Assembly (NCBI GenBank): GCA_019058315.1
Contig: JAHPZH010000002.1
Coordinates: 512,001 to 576,000 of the forward strand
Length of the DNA: 64,000 nucleotides
From: Candidatus Helarchaeota archaeon
Lineage (GTDB): Archaea; Asgardarchaeota; Lokiarchaeia; Helarchaeales; RDOG01
Reading direction: 5' to 3'
The position numbers were made by a program, and so were the translations under genes. The notes under the pieces are model-generated. The model made no database searches and was not told the DNA's origin. It worked only from the letters and a program-made list of their open reading frames with translations. This document shows, piece by piece, positions 31,256-47,545 of the stretch; the first letter of the stretch is position 1, and every line of letters starts with the position of its first letter.

Positions 31256-32224
31256 TTAATTTTGTAACGTTCTTCTTTCAATTAATTTTTGTCCCACGTG
31301 TCTAAACAAATTTGTTACATTATCCCCTGTTTTTGCGGAAGTTTCAAAATATTCAAAACCTAATTCATCAGCCTTTTGTTTTCCTTCTTCTGGAGAAATA
31401 TTTCTTTCGGTTTGTAAATCTTTTTTATTTCCAACTAGTAAAAATACACCATTTTTATTCCCATATTGATGTATCTCATCTAACCAGTAGTCAACTTTTC
31501 GAAATGAATCTCTATCCGAAAGATCGAATAAAATTAAGAAGGATTGAGTATTTGGATAATAAACCTTACGAAGGCTTTTAAAAGAATTTTGTCCTGAAAC
31601 ATCCCAAGCAGTAAATGAAAAGTTAGTATGAGAATTATATTCAAAAGTATATCTTTTTATGTCGACACCTAAAGTAGGTTTATAATTCGATTCAAATCTA
31701 TCTTCAACAAATCTATTTAATAAGGAGGTCTTTCCTACTCCTGAACTTCCAACAATTACAGTTTTATAAAGAAATTTCTTTCTAGGTTTTATTTTTTCTT
31801 TTATCTCTTTTTTTGATAGTTCAGGTGTTTGATATTTTATCCAGTCTTCGTATTTGAACTCCATATCTAATATACCTGAAAATGGTTGAAATCTATCGAT
31901 ATCTAAATCCCAGTTTTCAAGATTTCCAAAAATTTTAAGAAATTTATTACCAACTGCACTCATATATTCTCTCATTTGACTAATTTCATCCGATCGTTCA
32001 CAACCAGCCACGATCAAAATTTCTCCAAAGTTCATGTAAATAAATTTTGCATCCTTTAAAGAAATACTGTCAATTTCACCCTTTCCACTTTCTTTAGCAA
32101 ACGTATCAAGTGCAATAAAAAATCCAGAAATTAAATCTTCTCCCATTTGAATAGTAGAGTTTCCAAAATTTTTATGGAATAAATTTTCCCCGCTATTTTT
32201 AATAATCCATATATTGTTAATCAT
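31256..32224 (-). CDS. Longin domain fused to a Rab-like small GTPase
   Basis: N-terminal NIWII..SG..LF...LISGFF.AL..FA (longin). GTPase motifs: G1 GSSGVGKT, G2 PTLGVD, G3 WDVSGQ, G4 GNKKD, G5 ETSAK. Confidence 0.9.
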   Translation of the reverse strand: MINNIWIIKNSGENLFHKNFGNSTIQMGEDLISGFFIALDTFAKESGKGEIDSISLKDAKFIYMNFGEILIVAGCERSDEISQMREYMSAVGNKFLKIFGNLENWDLDIDRFQPFSGILDMEFKYEDWIKYQTPELSKKEIKEKIKPRKKFLYKTVIVGSSGVGKTSLLNRFVEDRFESNYKPTLGVDIKRYTFEYNSHTNFSFTAWDVSGQNSFKSLRKVYYPNTQSFLILFDLSDRDSFRKVDYWLDEIHQYGNKNGVFLLVGNKKDLQTERNISPEEGKQKADELGFEYFETSAKTGDNVTNLFRHVGQKLIERRTLQN

Positions 32225-34808: not shown

Positions 34809-35900
34809 TTAGCTATAATTTTTTTCCAATAGTTCAAAGTGCTTTACAGCAAGAGGTCTATCTAATTTTCGAAGTCTAAGTAAATTTCTGATATTTTCAA
34901 GTAAATAACTTGGAAAAAAGGTTTGGAACTTAATATCACTTGTTAATAATGTCCATTTTTTTAATTTATGGTCTTTAAACTCAGCAAAAATGTTCATTCT
35001 CAATAAATTTTGGTATACATCTTCAATTTCTTCTTTATCAAAATCTGAATGCTTTGAAATTTCTTCAGTGAGTATTGGTTGTTTTCGTAGTATTGAAATT
35101 AAATCATAATATATAGGATTTGTAATAATTTCAGCTAACCTTTCGATGTCTCTTGAGGAAGGTGTATATGCTTTAAAATATTCTATAAGATATTGAATGT
35201 AATCATTAGCCATAACAGAGGAAAATTTTTTTGACTGAACTTTTGAGATAATATCATATGGCGGAAACCGAGTCCCATAAAAATCGCGAATTAAGAAGAC
35301 ATTTTCAACTCTTCCTTTCTTAATAAAATCTCTAATAATTAAATTGCCTCTTATCAAATGGGATAATAAACTATCCATATTGGAAATGGTCTCTCCAAGT
35401 TCTTTTTCTAGTCTATCTTTTAGATCCATTATTGTTAATGGCCCTTCTTTAAGGATTTCAAAAAGCTTATTCAATTTATAATCTTTTAGAATAAATGCAT
35501 AAATTTGTTCCTGAGTTAATTTACTGGATTTAACTATATACAAGAAAGTTTTTGACAAAATATCTTTAAATTTCTCTGTTCCAACATTTGAAATAATATT
35601 ATTCACTGATTCTAATAGTGGATCTTCAAACCAATTTGTATCTTCATCAATATCTAATAAAATAGCAATTGCATATTGAGTTTGGACATCAATTCCTGTA
35701 AAATAACTCAAAACATTATCTGCACCTGATAATTTAATGGATAATAATCCTGGTCTTCCTTCTCCCATTGCATGTGATGTATAGATTCTCATAATTTCAT
35801 CTTGTTCAATTTTAAGATCTTCGGGATATTTTGAATCTAATATAACTCCTTCTTTATCGTCCCATTTTATAACTGCTATTCCTTTAGGGATTTTAATCAC
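34809..35900 (-). CDS. uDENN/longin-like N-terminal domain with winged-helix-like C-terminal regions
   Basis: GIAVIKWDDKEGVILDSKYP resembles the hhhh.F/WD...GP.....P start of DENN/NPRL-type longins. Later segments LFEILKEGPLTI.DL and LISILRKQPI..EEI are wHTH-like. Confidence 0.6.
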   Translation of the reverse strand: MIKIPKGIAVIKWDDKEGVILDSKYPEDLKIEQDEIMRIYTSHAMGEGRPGLLSIKLSGADNVLSYFTGIDVQTQYAIAILLDIDEDTNWFEDPLLESVNNIISNVGTEKFKDILSKTFLYIVKSSKLTQEQIYAFILKDYKLNKLFEILKEGPLTIMDLKDRLEKELGETISNMDSLLSHLIRGNLIIRDFIKKGRVENVFLIRDFYGTRFPPYDIISKVQSKKFSSVMANDYIQYLIEYFKAYTPSSRDIERLAEIITNPIYYDLISILRKQPILTEEISKHSDFDKEEIEDVYQNLLRMNIFAEFKDHKLKKWTLLTSDIKFQTFFPSYLLENIRNLLRLRKLDRPLAVKHFELLEKNYS

Positions 35901-41360: not shown

Positions 41361-41628
41361 TTATTTCCTTCCTTAATAAATTTTGATAATACCCACATAT
41401 TTAATGTAATTTGGGAAGAGTTTCCCCATATTTGAATTTTTAATCAGCAATTAAATTATTTATAAATGTTATAATATCTTATCAATACTAATATATAGTT
41501 TTAACGTTAAATTTTAGTTCAGAGTAAGAAAAATAAAGTTCCTCAAAAATTCTTTATTAATTATTAGAAGTGAATATATAGAGGGATTCCCGCTGCCCGA
41601 TTTAATAAGACCCGACGAAATAAATAAG

Positions 41629-42576
41629 TTGCTCGAGAATTATCTTAATATAATTGATGATATAAAAGCAACTGTCGTTGTAGACAATGATGGGCTAGTA
41701 TTTGCTTCTACTTTAAAGTCAGATTTAGAAGACTTAGTAATGAGTGCATTGACTGCACATATGCAAACACTTTCAGAAAGAATAAAACAAGAATCTGATT
41801 CCGGTTATTTTAAAAATTTGACATTAGAGATGGAAAAGCAAAAATTCATTTTTAATGAAGCAGGTCCTGAACATCTATTGCTAACTGTTGTAGATAAAGA
41901 TGCTGGAACAGATACAATTATAAAATACGCCCAAATTGTGGCAGAAAAAATTGCTAAAATATTGAATGGTGAACCAACCTCACTAAAACTTGAAAAAATT
42001 CACGAAAAACCTGTTGCAGTTGAAAAAGAAGAGCCTAAACCAATAAAAAAGTGTGTTTTTAAAGTTGTTATAGTAGGAGAACCTAGAGTAGGTAAAACTT
42101 CTTTAGTAGTCAAATTCGCAAAGGGTCGATTCGAATCAGTATATAAACCAACTTTAGGTGTTGATGTAATAAAACATTCCTATGAATATAATCCCAATGT
42201 CCATCTTATCTTTACAGCATGGGATATATCGGGACAAGCATCCTTTAAAAAACTTAGAAGGTCGTATTATCCTAATACTGAAGGATTTTTTGTTATTTAT
42301 GACACAACAGATAAAGAAAGTTTTGATAGAGTCAATGATTGGATAGAGGAAATACAACAATACGATACAAAAAATAGCATTTTTGTATTAGTTGGAAACA
42401 AAATTGATTTAGAAGACGAAAGAGTTATTTCTAAAGAGAAAGGAGATAAGAAAGCAAAAGATTTAGGAGTCTATTTTTATGAAACTTCAGCAAAAACTGG
42501 ACGAAATGTTAATGATCTTTTTTATTACTTAGGAGAAAAAATTGTTGAAAAAAGGAAAATAAAAGGTTCTGATTGA
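41629..42576 (+). CDS. Roadblock domain fused to a Rab-like small GTPase (start may be CTG 41593)
   Basis: IKATVVVDNDGLVFAS...MSAL (roadblock), then GEPRVGKT, PTLGVD, WDISGQ, GNKID and ETSAKTG. Confidence 0.9.
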   Translation: MLENYLNIIDDIKATVVVDNDGLVFASTLKSDLEDLVMSALTAHMQTLSERIKQESDSGYFKNLTLEMEKQKFIFNEAGPEHLLLTVVDKDAGTDTIIKYAQIVAEKIAKILNGEPTSLKLEKIHEKPVAVEKEEPKPIKKCVFKVVIVGEPRVGKTSLVVKFAKGRFESVYKPTLGVDVIKHSYEYNPNVHLIFTAWDISGQASFKKLRRSYYPNTEGFFVIYDTTDKESFDRVNDWIEEIQQYDTKNSIFVLVGNKIDLEDERVISKEKGDKKAKDLGVYFYETSAKTGRNVNDLFYYLGEKIVEKRKIKGSD

Positions 42577-42590
42577 TGTAGGAAAGGAAA

Positions 42591-43673
42591 TTGAATAAGC
42601 CTTATTTTTTGTATATTCTTAAAGCTTCAGGTTTATGTTTATTTTCTTATAATCTAAAAGGATACATGAGAGAATTCGAAGAATTTCTTATTACTGGATT
42701 TATTAGTGCAATTTCTACATTTTCTAGAGAATTAAATAAACAATTTGGTTATTCTGAAGAATATGGGCGATTATCTTCTATACCAATAAATGAAAATTTT
42801 GAAATTATGATTTCATATAAGCATCCATTGATTGGTGCTTTAATTGTTGGGAAGAAGGATATAGATGAGGATATGAAAAATTTTCTTGAAGAAATTATGA
42901 ACGAATTTCATTTGAAATATGAAGATAAATTTATGAAATTTGAAGGTGATATTTCAATATTTGATCCTTTTAAAGATGAAGTTGAAAGAATTTATGGAAA
43001 AATGGGCATTTTCTCATTTCAAATTCCAAAATTACAAAAGGATTATAGAAAAAGAATTGATTTTAATAAAAATGAATTTGAGCTAATTAAATTTATTGAT
43101 GGTAAAAATGATATAAAAGAAATTTCATTAAAAATGGGAAAAGAAATTGATGAAATAAAAAAACTAATTTCAACTCTATTATGGAATGAAAAGATAACAT
43201 TAAGTGAAAAGGTTTATGACGAAGATATTTATGAGCCAAAAATTAATCTATTTCATCTTATAAGAACTAAAGTTTTTACTCATGAAAAGGAAGAAATAAC
43301 AAGTTCTGAAAAAAGATCTATAGAATTTGAGGTACTTAAAACCATAGATGGATTTAAAACTGTGCATGAAATCTCGGAAGAATTTCAAAATCTATCAATT
43401 AGTGATATTAAACGAATAATTTCATTTTATTTCTCACAAGGCTATTTAGAGAAAGTGGAATTATATCCACAAATAATAAAATTGGATGATAATTTTTTAA
43501 AGAATTTTCAAAATCAAAACCTGGTTTTATGTTATAGCTTGGAAAATACTTGTAATGGGGAATTATCTCTTTTAGAAATATCAAATAGAATTGATATTCC
43601 TATTAAAGAAATTAAGAAAATGTTAGTTAATATGGGAAAGCAAGTTACTTATAAGAAAAAATATATTAAATAA
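42591..43673 (+). CDS. Longin domain with three winged-helix repeats (NPRL2-like architecture)
   Basis: LYIL..SG.CLF...LITGFISAI.TF (longin), then repeats IDGKNDIKEIS, IDGFKTVHEIS and CNGELSLLEIS. Confidence 0.75.
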   Translation: MNKPYFLYILKASGLCLFSYNLKGYMREFEEFLITGFISAISTFSRELNKQFGYSEEYGRLSSIPINENFEIMISYKHPLIGALIVGKKDIDEDMKNFLEEIMNEFHLKYEDKFMKFEGDISIFDPFKDEVERIYGKMGIFSFQIPKLQKDYRKRIDFNKNEFELIKFIDGKNDIKEISLKMGKEIDEIKKLISTLLWNEKITLSEKVYDEDIYEPKINLFHLIRTKVFTHEKEEITSSEKRSIEFEVLKTIDGFKTVHEISEEFQNLSISDIKRIISFYFSQGYLEKVELYPQIIKLDDNFLKNFQNQNLVLCYSLENTCNGELSLLEISNRIDIPIKEIKKMLVNMGKQVTYKKKYIK

Positions 43674-43872
43674 GGTTTAACATTCTAAAATTTTTATATT
43701 TGACTGCTAATTTAATAAAAATAATCAAGAAAAAGCTTAGAGAAGAACCCAATCCTTACCTTTGCAATATAATAATCTACCAGTATCCTACAATAACACA
43801 TGGGTATTACTCATTTTTATAATGAATACTTAACCACTCTTATTTAATAAGTACGCTTCATGAGGTGCCTAT

Positions 43873-45540
43873 TTGTTAAATAATGAATCAGCAATAACCT
43901 GCAATTTCTGTGGAAGTTTAAATCCAATTTATTATTGTAATAAATGTAATGTGGTTTTTTGCAGTAAGTGTAAAAAGGAAGAATTAAACAATCTGGTATT
44001 CTGCGCATATTGCGGAATTACTATTGCAAAAATCCAAAATAATGATCTAATGTCCGAACAAAAATATAAATGTCATAAATGCAGATCCAACAAATTTGTT
44101 ATTGGTCAAAAAAGGGTTAGACTATGTCCAGGTTGTAATCAAAGTAATATTTCAACTATTGCTGAGAAAAAACGTAATTTAATTGAGTCATCACGTAAAC
44201 TAATTTTTAGGTTCAGAGATGGTTACAAAGAATTATACACTTTTCTGACAAAATTAAGCCGTGTTAGAAATAAATTAATTGAACTCAGAACAAGCGGGTT
44301 TTTCCATGACCCTAAAATTGAATCATTTATCTTAAAATTGATCAGATCTATTCCACTTACAAAAAAACAAATTATGTTTAGGGTTGAACAAGATTATAAA
44401 ATTCTCAAATTACCTCTACAGAAATTTTTAGATCCATCGAAATGGACTCCTGATAAATTTTTCTTGCTTGAGGCATCTCTAAATCAAATTAAAGAGACCA
44501 TGGATGATTTTAGAAGATTTATTGACGAATTAATTGAGACTTCGAATAAGTTTTTAATAATCGCTACGAAAAAAATTAAAGCTGTGTCTTATTATAAAAA
44601 TATATATGATAAATTTGAAGGACTATTAGAAATATTACCAGGAGAATTACCTATATGCGCATTTAAAAATGTCAAATTTAAAAAATGTTCGTTTCAAGAT
44701 TTGAAAAGAAGTAAAGGTAATTTATTTTTGACTGATCGTCGTATGATTTTTCTTCGAAGGAAAGGATTAATCTTCAGAAAATACATACATCTGTTTGATT
44801 TCTTCTTAGAAGGATTTGAAAAGGTTGAATTAGTTGGAAGAGTATTTAAAAAATTGAAATTTTCATTAGAAGAGGGTAATATTAAATTTGCTGCACCTAA
44901 AAAAGTGATGCGAGCTATAAAGAATTATTTCACTATTTCCATTAATTTTGAGAAATATCGTGTAGAAGGTGAAATACCGACAGAAATTCTAGAACCTATA
45001 GATTTGAATTTATTGGATTTAAAACAAAAAATTGAATTAATCATTACTTCTTTATTAAGTTTAACACCAACTAGTTACCAAATAACAAACCCAAATCAAA
45101 TTAGTATTACATCACCAAGTGTTCAATTTAATAACTTTGAAAGAAATGATAATAACGAAAATCCTAGCAATAATATTGTATTATTTTTGCATAAAATTCA
45201 AGGGGAAGAGTTTTCATTAAGTAATACTCTTCAAAATCTAGAAGATAAATTTAATCAAGGGATCATCTCTTCTGAAGAATATTTAAAACAATTTCGTCAT
45301 TTACAATCTGAATTATTTTCAATAAGAAAAAGAATTGACCAGATCCAAAGACAAATTAATAATGATTTACCTTATAATCCAATATCGAGACCAATTAGTC
45401 AAAATTTAAGAATAGACCAAAATCCAATACAAATTAATTCAAATTTGAGAAATGTAGAAAATACAAGATGTAACAATGATGATTCTGATGAAAAAAATAA
45501 ATCTAAACCAGTTCCAATAAATATCTTCGATATGTATTGA
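43873..45540 (+). CDS. Multi-Zn-finger, coiled-coil, PH/GRAM-like and steadiness-box (Vps23/TSG101 core-like) protein
   Basis: Six CxxC motifs at the N-terminus, GNLFLTDRRMIF (GRAM/GLUE-like), and EEFSLSNTLQNLEDKFNQGIISSEEYLKQFRHLQSELFSIR. Confidence 0.7.
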   Translation: MLNNESAITCNFCGSLNPIYYCNKCNVVFCSKCKKEELNNLVFCAYCGITIAKIQNNDLMSEQKYKCHKCRSNKFVIGQKRVRLCPGCNQSNISTIAEKKRNLIESSRKLIFRFRDGYKELYTFLTKLSRVRNKLIELRTSGFFHDPKIESFILKLIRSIPLTKKQIMFRVEQDYKILKLPLQKFLDPSKWTPDKFFLLEASLNQIKETMDDFRRFIDELIETSNKFLIIATKKIKAVSYYKNIYDKFEGLLEILPGELPICAFKNVKFKKCSFQDLKRSKGNLFLTDRRMIFLRRKGLIFRKYIHLFDFFLEGFEKVELVGRVFKKLKFSLEEGNIKFAAPKKVMRAIKNYFTISINFEKYRVEGEIPTEILEPIDLNLLDLKQKIELIITSLLSLTPTSYQITNPNQISITSPSVQFNNFERNDNNENPSNNIVLFLHKIQGEEFSLSNTLQNLEDKFNQGIISSEEYLKQFRHLQSELFSIRKRIDQIQRQINNDLPYNPISRPISQNLRIDQNPIQINSNLRNVENTRCNNDDSDEKNKSKPVPINIFDMY

Positions 45541-45760
45541 TTTTATTAATTTTTTATTTTTTAAGATCCCTTTATTAGGGTTTTATCTAACTAATAGACG
45601 ATTTTTTCACCAAAACATTTTTAAATTTTCTATATTTATTCAAGGTCAATTTCTATTTAATAAAAAATAAAAATAATTTGCACCAAAATTTCTTATAATG
45701 TATTATAATTTATTGAATATTAATTAAAGATTTAGAATGAATTAGGATCCTAATCGAAAA

Positions 45761-47545
45761 ATGAGAAAAAAAATAATACTAATTTGTTTATTTTTAGGGT
45801 TTTTTTCTTTGCTATTCGTTGCAAGTTGTATTAAGAACCCATATCAGCCATTAATGAATTTTGGAATATCTTCTAATTTAGATTCTGAGGATATGAAAAC
45901 AACAGATGAACCATTACCCTATGAACCGCCGGATGCTCTTATAAATTTGGAAGTAATAAGAACGGTTTATTTTAAGCAAAGTCTAGTACATATCAACGAT
46001 TATTTTGTTGTGAAAAATAATAAAACTAATTCAAAGGACTTTATTCAAGTCGGACTTCCATATAATTTTAGGGGACAATTATATGATATTTCCGCTTCTG
46101 GAGAAAATATTGGAAAATTGCGAATAGTTGAGTTGCCATATGATGGAAGCGGATTCTCTAAATGGAATATATATTTAGATGATCCAATAAAACCTTATGA
46201 AATATTTAATTTTACGGTATCAATGATATGTTCTGATGTTGTTAACTTTAAAACCCCAACAAGCTTTTCTGGTAGTGATCCAATATATTCATACAGGTTT
46301 TATAAATATCCTTCTTCTCCTTACACTTCTTTATCAGTAGAATCAACATTTTATGCTGATAATAATGCACCAGATATAGCTAATGATTTACCATCATGGG
46401 ATTTTCAAACAAAAACAGGAACACTAACAGTAACAAATCCAATACTTGAATGCGAAATATTTAACCGAGTAATTGAGATAGATAGATGGGGATATATTTA
46501 CGTCCGAGAATATTATCAGTTAAGAAATTTAGTTTATAATAATAAAGTATCAACATTTAGTATCTTACTTCCTATTGATATAATGGAATATAAGGTATTT
46601 GACTTTTTTACTGATCTTATAGTGACTCCAATTCCAGAACCTCAAAATATGGCAATAAATATGACCATAAATTGGGATATCTCACGGTATTCTCTAGATA
46701 AAGGACAAGTCGCATACTTTTGGGTTGAATACAGAAGACCACTAGAATTGCACCATTTTGAATCAGGTTCTATAGGAAGATTTTTTTATCAATTCGAACC
46801 TGAAAGATTACCCTGGAAAACAGATCGCTTCTTAACTAGTTTTAAATTACCACCTGGTTGTTCTATCTTGTCTCATGTTCCCACTGCAACTTCTGTCTTA
46901 ACTTTAAATGGTGATATATATCTAAACTATTTAACAATTAATTCTACTCAAAACCACTATAAAGTATTCATATTTGATTATGTTATATTAGAAACTCTTC
47001 CATTTGATTTCTTTAGACCCCTACTAATAGCAGGGTTAATTTCTATTCCACTAATCTCTTTTATAATATTGAAACGAGAATTACCTCGAAAAAAAGAATT
47101 ACGGTTACGACCTACAGAAGTTCCATCTCATATAATTAGAGAATTTATTACTTTATATTCGGAAAAGAATGCTTTGTATATTGAAATAGAAAATCTTGAA
47201 GAAAACATGGCGAGAAGAAAAATTAAAAAACGTGAATACCGTAATCAACTGAAAACAATCGAGAGGAAACTATCTGATTTAAATAAAGAATTAAAGAAAT
47301 TTTCGGATGAAATTTCCGAAGCAGGAGGGCGTTATGAAAAAATTATTGAGGAACTAGAGCTTCGAGAAGCAGATTATGACATGGCTAGAGAAGCTTTAGA
47401 AGCAATAGAAAGAAGATATAGGGTTAGTCGAAGAATTAGTACTACTACTTATAGAAAATTGAAAAAGGAAGAAGAAAAAGCTCTCCAAAAATCCAAAAAA
47501 GATAAAGAAAAACTTATACAAGAACTTAGAGAACTTATGGGTTAA
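45761..47545 (+). CDS. Ribophorin I (OST1/RPN1) homologue
   Basis: Signal peptide, two beta-sandwich domains including RVIEIDRWGYIYVREYYQLRN (compare RPN1 RVIEVSHWGNIAVEE), a single TM and a cytoplasmic coiled-coil tail. Confidence 0.75.
   Translation: MRKKIILICLFLGFFSLLFVASCIKNPYQPLMNFGISSNLDSEDMKTTDEPLPYEPPDALINLEVIRTVYFKQSLVHINDYFVVKNNKTNSKDFIQVGLPYNFRGQLYDISASGENIGKLRIVELPYDGSGFSKWNIYLDDPIKPYEIFNFTVSMICSDVVNFKTPTSFSGSDPIYSYRFYKYPSSPYTSLSVESTFYADNNAPDIANDLPSWDFQTKTGTLTVTNPILECEIFNRVIEIDRWGYIYVREYYQLRNLVYNNKVSTFSILLPIDIMEYKVFDFFTDLIVTPIPEPQNMAINMTINWDISRYSLDKGQVAYFWVEYRRPLELHHFESGSIGRFFYQFEPERLPWKTDRFLTSFKLPPGCSILSHVPTATSVLTLNGDIYLNYLTINSTQNHYKVFIFDYVILETLPFDFFRPLLIAGLISIPLISFIILKRELPRKKELRLRPTEVPSHIIREFITLYSEKNALYIEIENLEENMARRKIKKREYRNQLKTIERKLSDLNKELKKFSDEISEAGGRYEKIIEELELREADYDMAREALEAIERRYRVSRRISTTTYRKLKKEEEKALQKSKKDKEKLIQELRELMG

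Follow-up and report, generated by a model that had tools for sequence, protein, structure and literature searches.

Introduction

NPRL2 (Npr2 in yeast) is a subunit of the GATOR1/SEACIT complex, the GTPase-activating protein (GAP) for RagA/Gtr1; in GATOR1 structures, its winged helices make protein contacts. Bet5/TRAPPC1 is a longin of the sybindin type and forms part of a guanine nucleotide exchange factor (GEF) for Rab GTPases. Roadblock or longin domains pair edge to edge in Ragulator, NPRL2-NPRL3, Mon1-Ccz1, and MglB. Here, we analyze two adjacent genes of an Asgard archaeon: the first (open reading frame 1, ORF1) encodes a roadblock domain fused to a Rab-like GTPase, and the second (ORF2) encodes an NPRL2-like protein comprised of a longin domain and three winged helices. 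The genes lie in a stretch of 64,000 nucleotides (Candidatus Helarchaeota archaeon, assembly GCA_019058315.1, contig JAHPZH010000002.1, positions 512,001 to 576,000), which we call the window and to which plain coordinates refer. The window is AT-rich, with the GC content of ∼29%. The host genome is an Asgard genome of the Lokiarchaeia type, assembled into 12 contigs with the total length of 5.8 Mb and 94% complete; relatives of the proteins encoded in the window carry the labels Promethearchaeota, Helarchaeota, Hodarchaeota, and Lokiarchaeota.

The gene family and the roadblock-GTPase (RB-GTPase) fusions have already been published for Asgards. Many Asgard clusters of orthologous genes (asCOGs) are NPRL2-like longin proteins (Liu et al., 2020/2021), in print since 2020/21; as far as the text of that work shows, they have the same domain organization as ORF2, come from the same lineages, and belong to the same family. 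The text also describes an Asgard operon of a LAMTOR1-like roadblock protein, a Rab-like GTPase, and a DENN-domain protein. The "NPRL2-like longin domain" is a counted class of eukaryotic signature proteins in Lokiarchaeum ossiferum, and a 2025 paper reports longins of the FLCN/SMCR8 type with the GP motif and the arginine finger in Asgards. For Prometheoarchaeum MK-D1, both RB-GTPase and longin-GTPase fusions have been listed (Tran et al., 2024). Neither the text of Liu et al. (2020/2021) nor any other text that we found describes a conserved operon of an NPRL2-like gene with a Rab-like GTPase gene, or its variant with an RB-GTPase fusion as the neighbor.

Asgard genomes encode dozens of small GTPases and over a hundred roadblock/longin proteins, and it is an acknowledged problem that cognate GTPase-regulator pairs are not readable from the genome (Tran et al., 2024). 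In the operon considered here, the partners come matched: one is a Rab-like GTPase that contains its own roadblock domain, the other is an NPRL2 homologue, and both are suited to direct expression and assay. Such a pair could reveal the role of an NPRL2-type protein at a time when Rag GTPases, DEPDC5, and TOR did not yet exist, and could tell whether GATOR1 inherited its arginine-finger GAP activity or whether this activity arose in eukaryotes. Its value is that of a good experimental handle rather than of the discovery of a new kind of system.

ORF2 Is Related to NPRL2

The initial annotation of this locus, made by eye from the sequence, had aligned a part of ORF2 with human NPRL2. HMMER yields the same alignment (QIP/DVP, IDG...I..IS, and Y.P), and the similarity is well beyond chance. 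The ORF2 sequence alone matched nothing in PDB except human NPRL2, in its two deposited forms (E 0.13). The profile built from 41 close ORF2 relatives matched human NPRL2 with E 1.5e-4, and a diverse-family profile (A2) matched its residues 170-336 with E 8.5e-12 and yeast Npr2 with E 7e-7. The diverse homologues came from an exhaustive search of 1.84 billion representatives, which gave 81 hits in all. Pfam is less sensitive here: ORF2 itself is below the threshold of the NPR2 model (PF06218), and this model has no match at E <= 1 in the whole host genome, missing all three ORF2 paralogues. Still, an orthologue with 84% identity to ORF2 (P0004) clears it, with 31.1 bits versus the cut-off of 27.5.

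The AlphaFold2 (AF2) model of ORF2 (predicted local distance difference test, pLDDT, 85.9; predicted template-modeling score, pTM, 0.78) consists of a longin domain, residues 1-138, and three helix-turn-helix plus wing units at residues ∼150-217, 239-296, and 305-358. This confirms the domain composition proposed initially. When the model was compared with solved structures by Foldseek, chains of GATOR1 or SEACIT took all of the best 14 places (E 9e-12 to 6e-4); the chain lengths are consistent with NPRL2 and NPRL3, and one of the chains, 8adl_S, is Npr2. The only full-length VIA alignments were those with NPRL2 (8fw5_B, 295 residues, Z 11.1) and Npr2 (8adl_S, 308 residues, Z 10.5). The global template-modeling (TM) score is low, ∼0.26, because the domains sit at different angles. 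Like NPRL2, ORF2 starts with the longin domain and continues with winged helices, and the lengths are similar (360 vs. 380 amino acids, aa). The sequence homology spans the QIP motif, winged helix 1, the linker, and winged helix 2, and the folds are collinear. Judged by the sequence profiles and by the full-length fold of the model, ORF2 is a genuine relative of the NPRL2 family. We also considered ORF2 as a DENN protein and rejected this, as there were no DENN, FLCN, or SMCR8 chains among the best 50 fold matches, and the C-terminal part is formed by three winged helices.

The longin domain has other close relatives. With a profile restricted to the N-terminal part, the closest match in PDB was TRAPP Bet5/TRAPPC1 (E 5.8e-4), further matches being AP sigma, Mon1, and Sec22, and one ORF2 homologue (P0048) passes the Pfam Sybindin threshold. 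The closest solved sequence relatives of the ORF2 longin are found in TRAPP and Mon1-Ccz1, where longins form platforms for Rab GTPases. On the other hand, TRAPP and Mon1-Ccz1 have no winged-helix tail, and these are multi-subunit assemblies with Bet3-type subunits, which are not encoded at the ORF1-ORF2 locus. The conserved longin residues across the ORF2 family are G14, G36, F37, A40, F44, L99, and F106. Four of them, G36, F37, A40, and F44 in helix alpha1 (SGF..AI..F), exceed all other positions of the superfamily in conservation.

ORF2 as a whole is acidic (isoelectric point, pI, 5.8). Winged helices 1 and 2 range from neutral to acidic; in both of these units, the third helix is hydrophobic or acidic. 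Winged helix 3 ends in a KKKYIK tail.

ORF1 Is a Roadblock-Rab-Like GTPase Fusion

By its Pfam matches, ORF1 is a fusion of a roadblock domain and a Rab-like G domain. The ORF2 gene thus adjoins a gene for a roadblock-bearing small GTPase, which is one more similarity to NPRL2. The partner is, however, of a different kind than that of NPRL2. The G domain scores 164.9 bits with the Ras model and 22.6 bits with Gtr1_RagA, and its best 60 relatives in PDB are Rab/Ypt proteins without exception (60/60, E 5e-36 to 3e-31). In Rag proteins, the G domain is N-terminal and the roadblock domain is C-terminal, while in ORF1 this order is reversed (Robl at residues 10-87, Ras at 145-305). Hence, the label "Rag-like" is not supported, whereas the caveats attached to it at the outset, the reversed domain order and the Rab-like G domain, were right.

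The motifs G1-G5 are complete: the P-loop GEPRVGKT, switch I PTLGVD, DISGQ with the catalytic Gln, NKID, and ETSAK. The P-loop is unusual in that Pro and Arg replace Gly12 and Gly13 of Ras; the G-x-P-R pattern is kept in close ORF1 orthologues, while paralogues carry GDSG or GGEGG instead. A prenylation-type C-terminal Cys motif is absent from ORF1, which has a basic tail ending with EKRKIKGSD. The architecture of ORF1 is the one listed for RB-GTPases of MK-D1, where, however, GTPase genes are generally not in operons with regulators (Tran et al., 2024); here, the operon is conserved.

NPRL2-Like Genes Are Linked to GTPase Genes

The host genome contains three full-length ORF2 paralogues, and each of them has a gene of a Ras-family GTPase just upstream. 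In all, the adjacency of an ORF2-type gene and a Ras-family GTPase gene recurs in ∼12 loci (examples in Table 1), with the identity to ORF2 down to 29%. As a background, there are 80 Ras-family matches in the 5.8 Mb of the host genome, that is, ∼1.6% of genes. Diverged loci thus keep the linkage of the two genes, for which a synteny check across Asgard genomes had been suggested initially. In three metagenome-assembled genomes, the arrangement is exactly that of the window, with a giant surface protein gene upstream and genes for a Vps23-core-like protein and ribophorin I downstream.

Some of these loci contain additional longin or roadblock genes. In the G000:C1 locus, the first of the five genes encodes a 279-aa protein with an ORF2-type longin; it is followed by the genes for a 136-aa protein, the GTPase, a 214-aa protein with a WD..HGP longin, and, at the end, the 361-aa NPRL2-like protein. 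The 214-aa protein starts with this longin, which is of the uDENN/FLCN type, so that two longin types are adjacent there. In five genomes of another family, the ORF2 homologues have 424 aa and a Robl gene is directly upstream; the cluster is co-directional, with the gene order GTPase, TrmI, ProRS, Roadblock, and NPRL2-like.

The operon with the DENN-domain protein described by Liu et al. (2020/2021) is similar in that a roadblock/longin protein, a Rab-like GTPase, and a longin-containing regulator are encoded on one strand, and the Loki_b32 locus has the same order of longin, GTPase, and regulator. The difference is that ORF2 is NPRL2-like and not a DENN protein, and that ORF1 combines the roadblock domain and the GTPase in one protein.

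In two lineages, distant NPRL2-like genes are flanked by genes of aminoacyl-tRNA synthetases and tRNA modification (L040:3094-8913; L085:1-8044; L051:368-5427; also L042, L043, L046, and L050). In one lineage, the order is CysRS, the NPRL2-like gene, and two GTPases, and a LeuRS-like gene in convergent orientation and AlaRS are close by; the other lineage has the GTPase-TrmI-ProRS-Roadblock-NPRL2-like cluster. This flanking may be due to chance or may hint at a link to the amino-acid status.

The Two Genes as a Transcription Unit

The natural reading of the locus is that ORF1 and ORF2 form a single transcription unit, as was proposed initially; this is suggested by the 14-nt spacer with a ribosome-binding-like run, the T5 run past the ORF2 stop codon, and the 199-nt gap between ORF2 and the next gene. 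The AT-rich block upstream of ORF1, with its TATA-like TTTATTAATT, is a putative promoter.

The first canonical start codon of ORF1 is TTG at 41629, and the longer reading starts with CTG at 41593, which would require a rare start codon. This longer reading is plausible, since the 12 intervening codons, 41593-41629 (LPDLIRPDEINK), are conserved among ORF1 orthologues, the conserved GAGGGA is located 7 nt upstream of the CTG codon, and in two orthologous loci TTG is found at or beside this position. Another ORF1 orthologue has only CTG at the start, and the gene caller gave a much shorter product there.

Table 1. Features of the ORF1-ORF2 locus, related genes in the window, and loci with ORF2 homologues beside GTPase genes
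Feature	Position	Strand	Details
ORF2-type longin fused directly to Rab-like GTPase, 322 aa	31256..32224	-	Longin 27% identity over 146 aa, E 3e-9; Ras E 9e-50
Second longin and winged-helix protein, 363 aa, NPRL2/NPRL3-like fold	34809..35900	-	WD..G..YP-type longin; AF2 pLDDT 90.8
Conserved AT-rich upstream block	41544..41586	+	Read from sequence; kept in orthologous loci L054 and L056
TATA-like element within the upstream block	41553-41562	+	TTTATTAATT, read from sequence
Ribosome-binding-like GAGGGA	41581-41586	+	Read from sequence; conserved
ORF1, roadblock-Rab-like GTPase fusion	41593..42576	+	327 aa from CTG 41593; 315 aa from TTG 41629
Roadblock/LC7 domain of ORF1	41656..41889	+	Pfam Robl_LC7, residues 10-87 (numbered from TTG), E 2.4e-10, 40.4 bits vs. 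cut-off 23
Rab-like G domain of ORF1	42061..42543	+	Pfam Ras, residues 145-305, E 1.5e-48
P-loop of ORF1	42076-42099	+	Residues 150-157
Intergenic spacer, 14 nt	42577..42590	+	Purine-rich ribosome-binding-like run GGAAAGGAAA; too short for a promoter
ORF2, NPRL2-like protein, longin and three winged helices	42591..43673	+	TTG start, 360 aa
Longin domain of ORF2	42591..43004	+	Residues 1-138; AF2 model; VIA-align Z 10-12.7 to many longin and roadblock domains
QIP motif, winged helix 1, linker, winged helix 2 of ORF2	43020..43478	+	Residues ∼144-296; homologous to NPRL2 in sequence
Winged helix 3 of ORF2	43503..43664	+	Residues ∼305-358; Pfam HTH_47, E 2.2e-7; basic, pI 9.2
T5 run, possible archaeal termination signal	43691..43695	+	18 nt past the ORF2 stop
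Paralogous locus, host genome	G000:C5:729511-731135		Leucine-rich-repeat protein, GTPase, NPRL2-like gene
Paralogous locus, host genome	G000:C1:520744-524287 (L036:2744-6287)		Five co-directional genes; one gene separates GTPase from NPRL2-like gene
Loki_b32			Longin (short, ORF2-type), then GTPase, then NPRL2-like gene
G225	L039:3137-6812		Tandem duplication of the GTPase-NPRL2-like pair: 179 and 361 aa, then 179 and 366 aa
L054, L055, L056/L057			NPRL2-like gene directly beside Ras-family GTPase gene
L055			Two RB-GTPase genes, stand-alone GTPase, NPRL2-like gene
L084			41%-identical ORF2 homologue, then GTPase
L040, L085			∼29%-identical ORF2 homologues, then two GTPases

Possible Functions of the Operon

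We consider it probable that the operon encodes a small-GTPase switch together with its cognate regulator, a longin-type platform. The roadblock domain of ORF1 would pair edge to edge with the longin domain of ORF2, and the resulting two-lobed platform could accept the G domain, which would dock via the conserved surface of helix alpha1. The platform would thereby set or sense the nucleotide state of ORF1. The acidic winged helices 1 and 2 may bind proteins, as those of NPRL2 do, and not DNA. The recurrence of the same set of a roadblock/longin domain, a Rab-like GTPase, and an NPRL2-like protein, encoded by separate genes or with an RB-GTPase or longin-GTPase fusion, argues for a physical module. 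As to the role of ORF2, we lean toward a GEF-like or scaffold platform, or a GAP without the NPRL2-type finger, since the longin domain has no arginine conserved throughout the family and is TRAPP-like.

Several observations weigh against the assignment of ORF1 and ORF2 to such a regulatory pair, or against the parallel to NPRL2 within it. Most other NPRL2-like genes are preceded by stand-alone GTPases of a different subtype with the P-loop GDYGVGK[ST], and in L055, a GDYGVGK-type GTPase gene is located between the RB-GTPase genes and the NPRL2-like gene; because of that, the GDYGVGK subtype may be the ancestral partner and the RB-GTPase a secondary one. The most distant ORF2 homologues (286-343 aa) have no GTPase gene nearby, and an RB-GTPase paralogue with 44% identity has no NPRL2-like neighbor. 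Winged helix 3 is basic, and family members weakly match the MarR, TrmB, and AsnC models, so a nucleic-acid role of ORF2 is possible. Finally, no arginine is invariant or nearly so in the longin domain across the ORF2 family, and the hairpin between its last two strands is reduced to "HP" (it reads KHPL). It is in the loop between the last two longin strands that we tentatively place Arg78 of NPRL2, this register being provisional; the N-terminal profile of ORF2, compared with PDB in order to align Arg78, did not match the NPRL2 longin. At the place of the catalytic finger so assumed, ORF2 has no conserved Arg. Given the lack of a family-wide arginine and the short hairpin, a GATOR1-type catalytic mechanism is unsupported, and an NPRL2-style arginine finger in ORF2 is unlikely.

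The initial annotation had viewed the pair as a candidate Rag/GATOR1-like switch, singling out the arginine of an EEYGR loop. In its full form, this would make ORF2 an arginine-finger GAP that switches off a Rag-like GTPase in nutrient sensing, with R60 as the catalytic residue, which we find improbable. It is consistent with the NPRL2 homology and the collinear fold of ORF2, and R60 (loop GYSEEYGR) is Arg in 37/41 and Lys in 4/41 close family members. A finger provided in trans would be usable, as the G domain has the catalytic Gln. Moreover, a second NPRL2/3-like fold is encoded 6.7 kb upstream, and its longin type adjoins an NPRL2-like gene in a paralogous operon, while synthetase genes occur beside distant homologues in two lineages. 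However, the G domain is Rab-like and not Rag-like, and the longin sequence resembles TRAPP Bet5/sybindin. R60 lies in a loop that is inserted between helix alpha1 and strand 3 and is specific to the subfamily; conservation of this residue is confined to the close, Loki-type subfamily, and the insertion is missing both from more distant ORF2 homologues and from the longin-GTPase fusion at 31256-32224. No IML1/DEPDC5 (PF12257) match was found in the 94%-complete host genome, although the same search matched no control genome either, and the TOR kinase is absent from Asgards according to the text of Liu et al. (2020/2021). Of the Rag/GATOR1 parallel, the relationship to NPRL2 and the conserved linkage hold, whereas the Rag-like G domain and the GATOR1-like GAP are not supported, and the longin domain is nearest to TRAPP Bet5/sybindin.

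A GTPase-controlled transcription factor, in which the three winged helices bind DNA and the longin domain couples the binding to the GTPase state, comparable to outputs of the conservon or MglA type, is also an unlikely reading. Family members have weak matches to the MarR, TrmB, AsnC, IclR, and HTH_47 models and to the solved Lrp/AsnC, MarR, and AdcR regulators, and winged helix 3 with its KKKYIK tail has the pI of 9.2. The charge of the rest of the protein, with the acidic whole, the neutral to acidic winged helices 1 and 2, and their hydrophobic or acidic third helices, argues against DNA binding, and the best and only strong relative, NPRL2, uses its winged helices for protein contacts. 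MglA-MglB and the actinobacterial conservon (CvnB, the DUF742 protein CvnC, CvnD) were mentioned initially as alternative analogues, and they share with this locus the joint encoding of a roadblock protein, a winged-helix protein, and a Ras-superfamily GTPase. The differences are as follows: the G domain of ORF1 is Rab-like and not MglA-like, there is no sensor kinase gene at the locus, and DUF742, the winged-helix component of the conservon, is not matched by ORF2 and gives a negligible signal (E 0.11) in 3/41 family members.

The adjacency might also carry no direct functional meaning, with ORF2 serving some other GTPase, as the genome contains 80 Ras-family genes and many longins. Such a view agrees with the general absence of GTPase genes from operons with roadblock/longin genes in MK-D1 (Tran et al., 2024), with the variable subtype of the GTPase beside NPRL2-like genes, and with the loss of linkage in distant homologues. 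We nevertheless deem it quite improbable, as GTPase neighbors in ∼12 loci, at the ORF2 identity as low as 29%, stand against a background of ∼1.6% of genes encoding Ras-family proteins. The 14-nt spacer and the natural occurrence of an ORF2-type longin fused to a GTPase also speak against coincidence.

Returning to the switch with its platform regulator, a bolder version of it would see the operon as a surviving ancestor of the eukaryotic longin GAP complexes, in which the NPRL2-type protein, together with a second longin/roadblock module (the roadblock domain of ORF1 or, as an NPRL3-like partner, the WD..G..YP-type longin protein encoded at 34809-35900), directly regulates a Rab-like GTPase. 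We hold this to be doubtful. If true, the regulatory relation between NPRL2 and a GTPase would be older than Rag GTPases and TOR. The CysRS, LeuRS-like, and ProRS genes flanking distant homologues hint at a link to amino acids or tRNA charging, and the conserved synteny of the giant surface protein and ESCRT-I-like genes hints at a connection with these two.

Related Longin Genes and Neighboring Genes

The window contains two more longin genes related to this system (Table 1). The longin-GTPase fusion at 31256-32224 has a Q-x-P motif at the end of the longin domain and shares with ORF1 a closely related G domain. The 363-aa protein encoded at 34809-35900 is the second NPRL-like fold mentioned above. 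Unlike in GATOR1, no NPRL3 gene is linked to ORF2: the 34809-35900 gene is located downstream of the giant surface protein gene and is separated from the operon by 6.7 kb. In the Foldseek comparison of its model, the best 8 matches were GATOR1/SEACIT chains, NPRL2/Npr2 included (E 1.6e-5 to 7e-4), and the next were FNIP2, SMCR8, and DENN proteins. We considered whether this protein and ORF2 are recognizable paralogues; BLASTP and hhalign, with single sequences and families, gave no significant similarity, and we rejected this idea. In the G000:C1 operon, the gene that separates the GTPase from the NPRL2-like gene encodes a longin of the same type as that of the 363-aa protein (E 2.4e-10). It is conceivable that the two longin types pair in the manner of NPRL2 and NPRL3.

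The family of the 363-aa protein was found in 81/81 genomes sampled from the class, and the host genome has 15 copies. Its members are sometimes embedded in ORFs of ∼2,660 aa. Three paralogues in the host genome (G000:C1:444035-445976; C11:122559-124639; C6:275614-278359) adjoin ORFs of 528-573 aa. In the N-terminal parts of these ORFs, the similarity to the Ras model is limited to its first ∼120 positions. These ORFs may be another class of GTPase-like partners.

The giant surface protein gene upstream of the operon is transcribed divergently from ORF1. Downstream, in the region 43873-47545 on the plus strand, there are two genes. The product of the first has 555 aa, with zinc ribbons made of Cys pairs at the N-terminus, and weakly matches the Vps23 core of ESCRT-I (E 1e-4); the second encodes a homologue of ribophorin I (E 1.8e-8). 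Both genes hold the same position after the operon in L054 and L056, which are close relatives.

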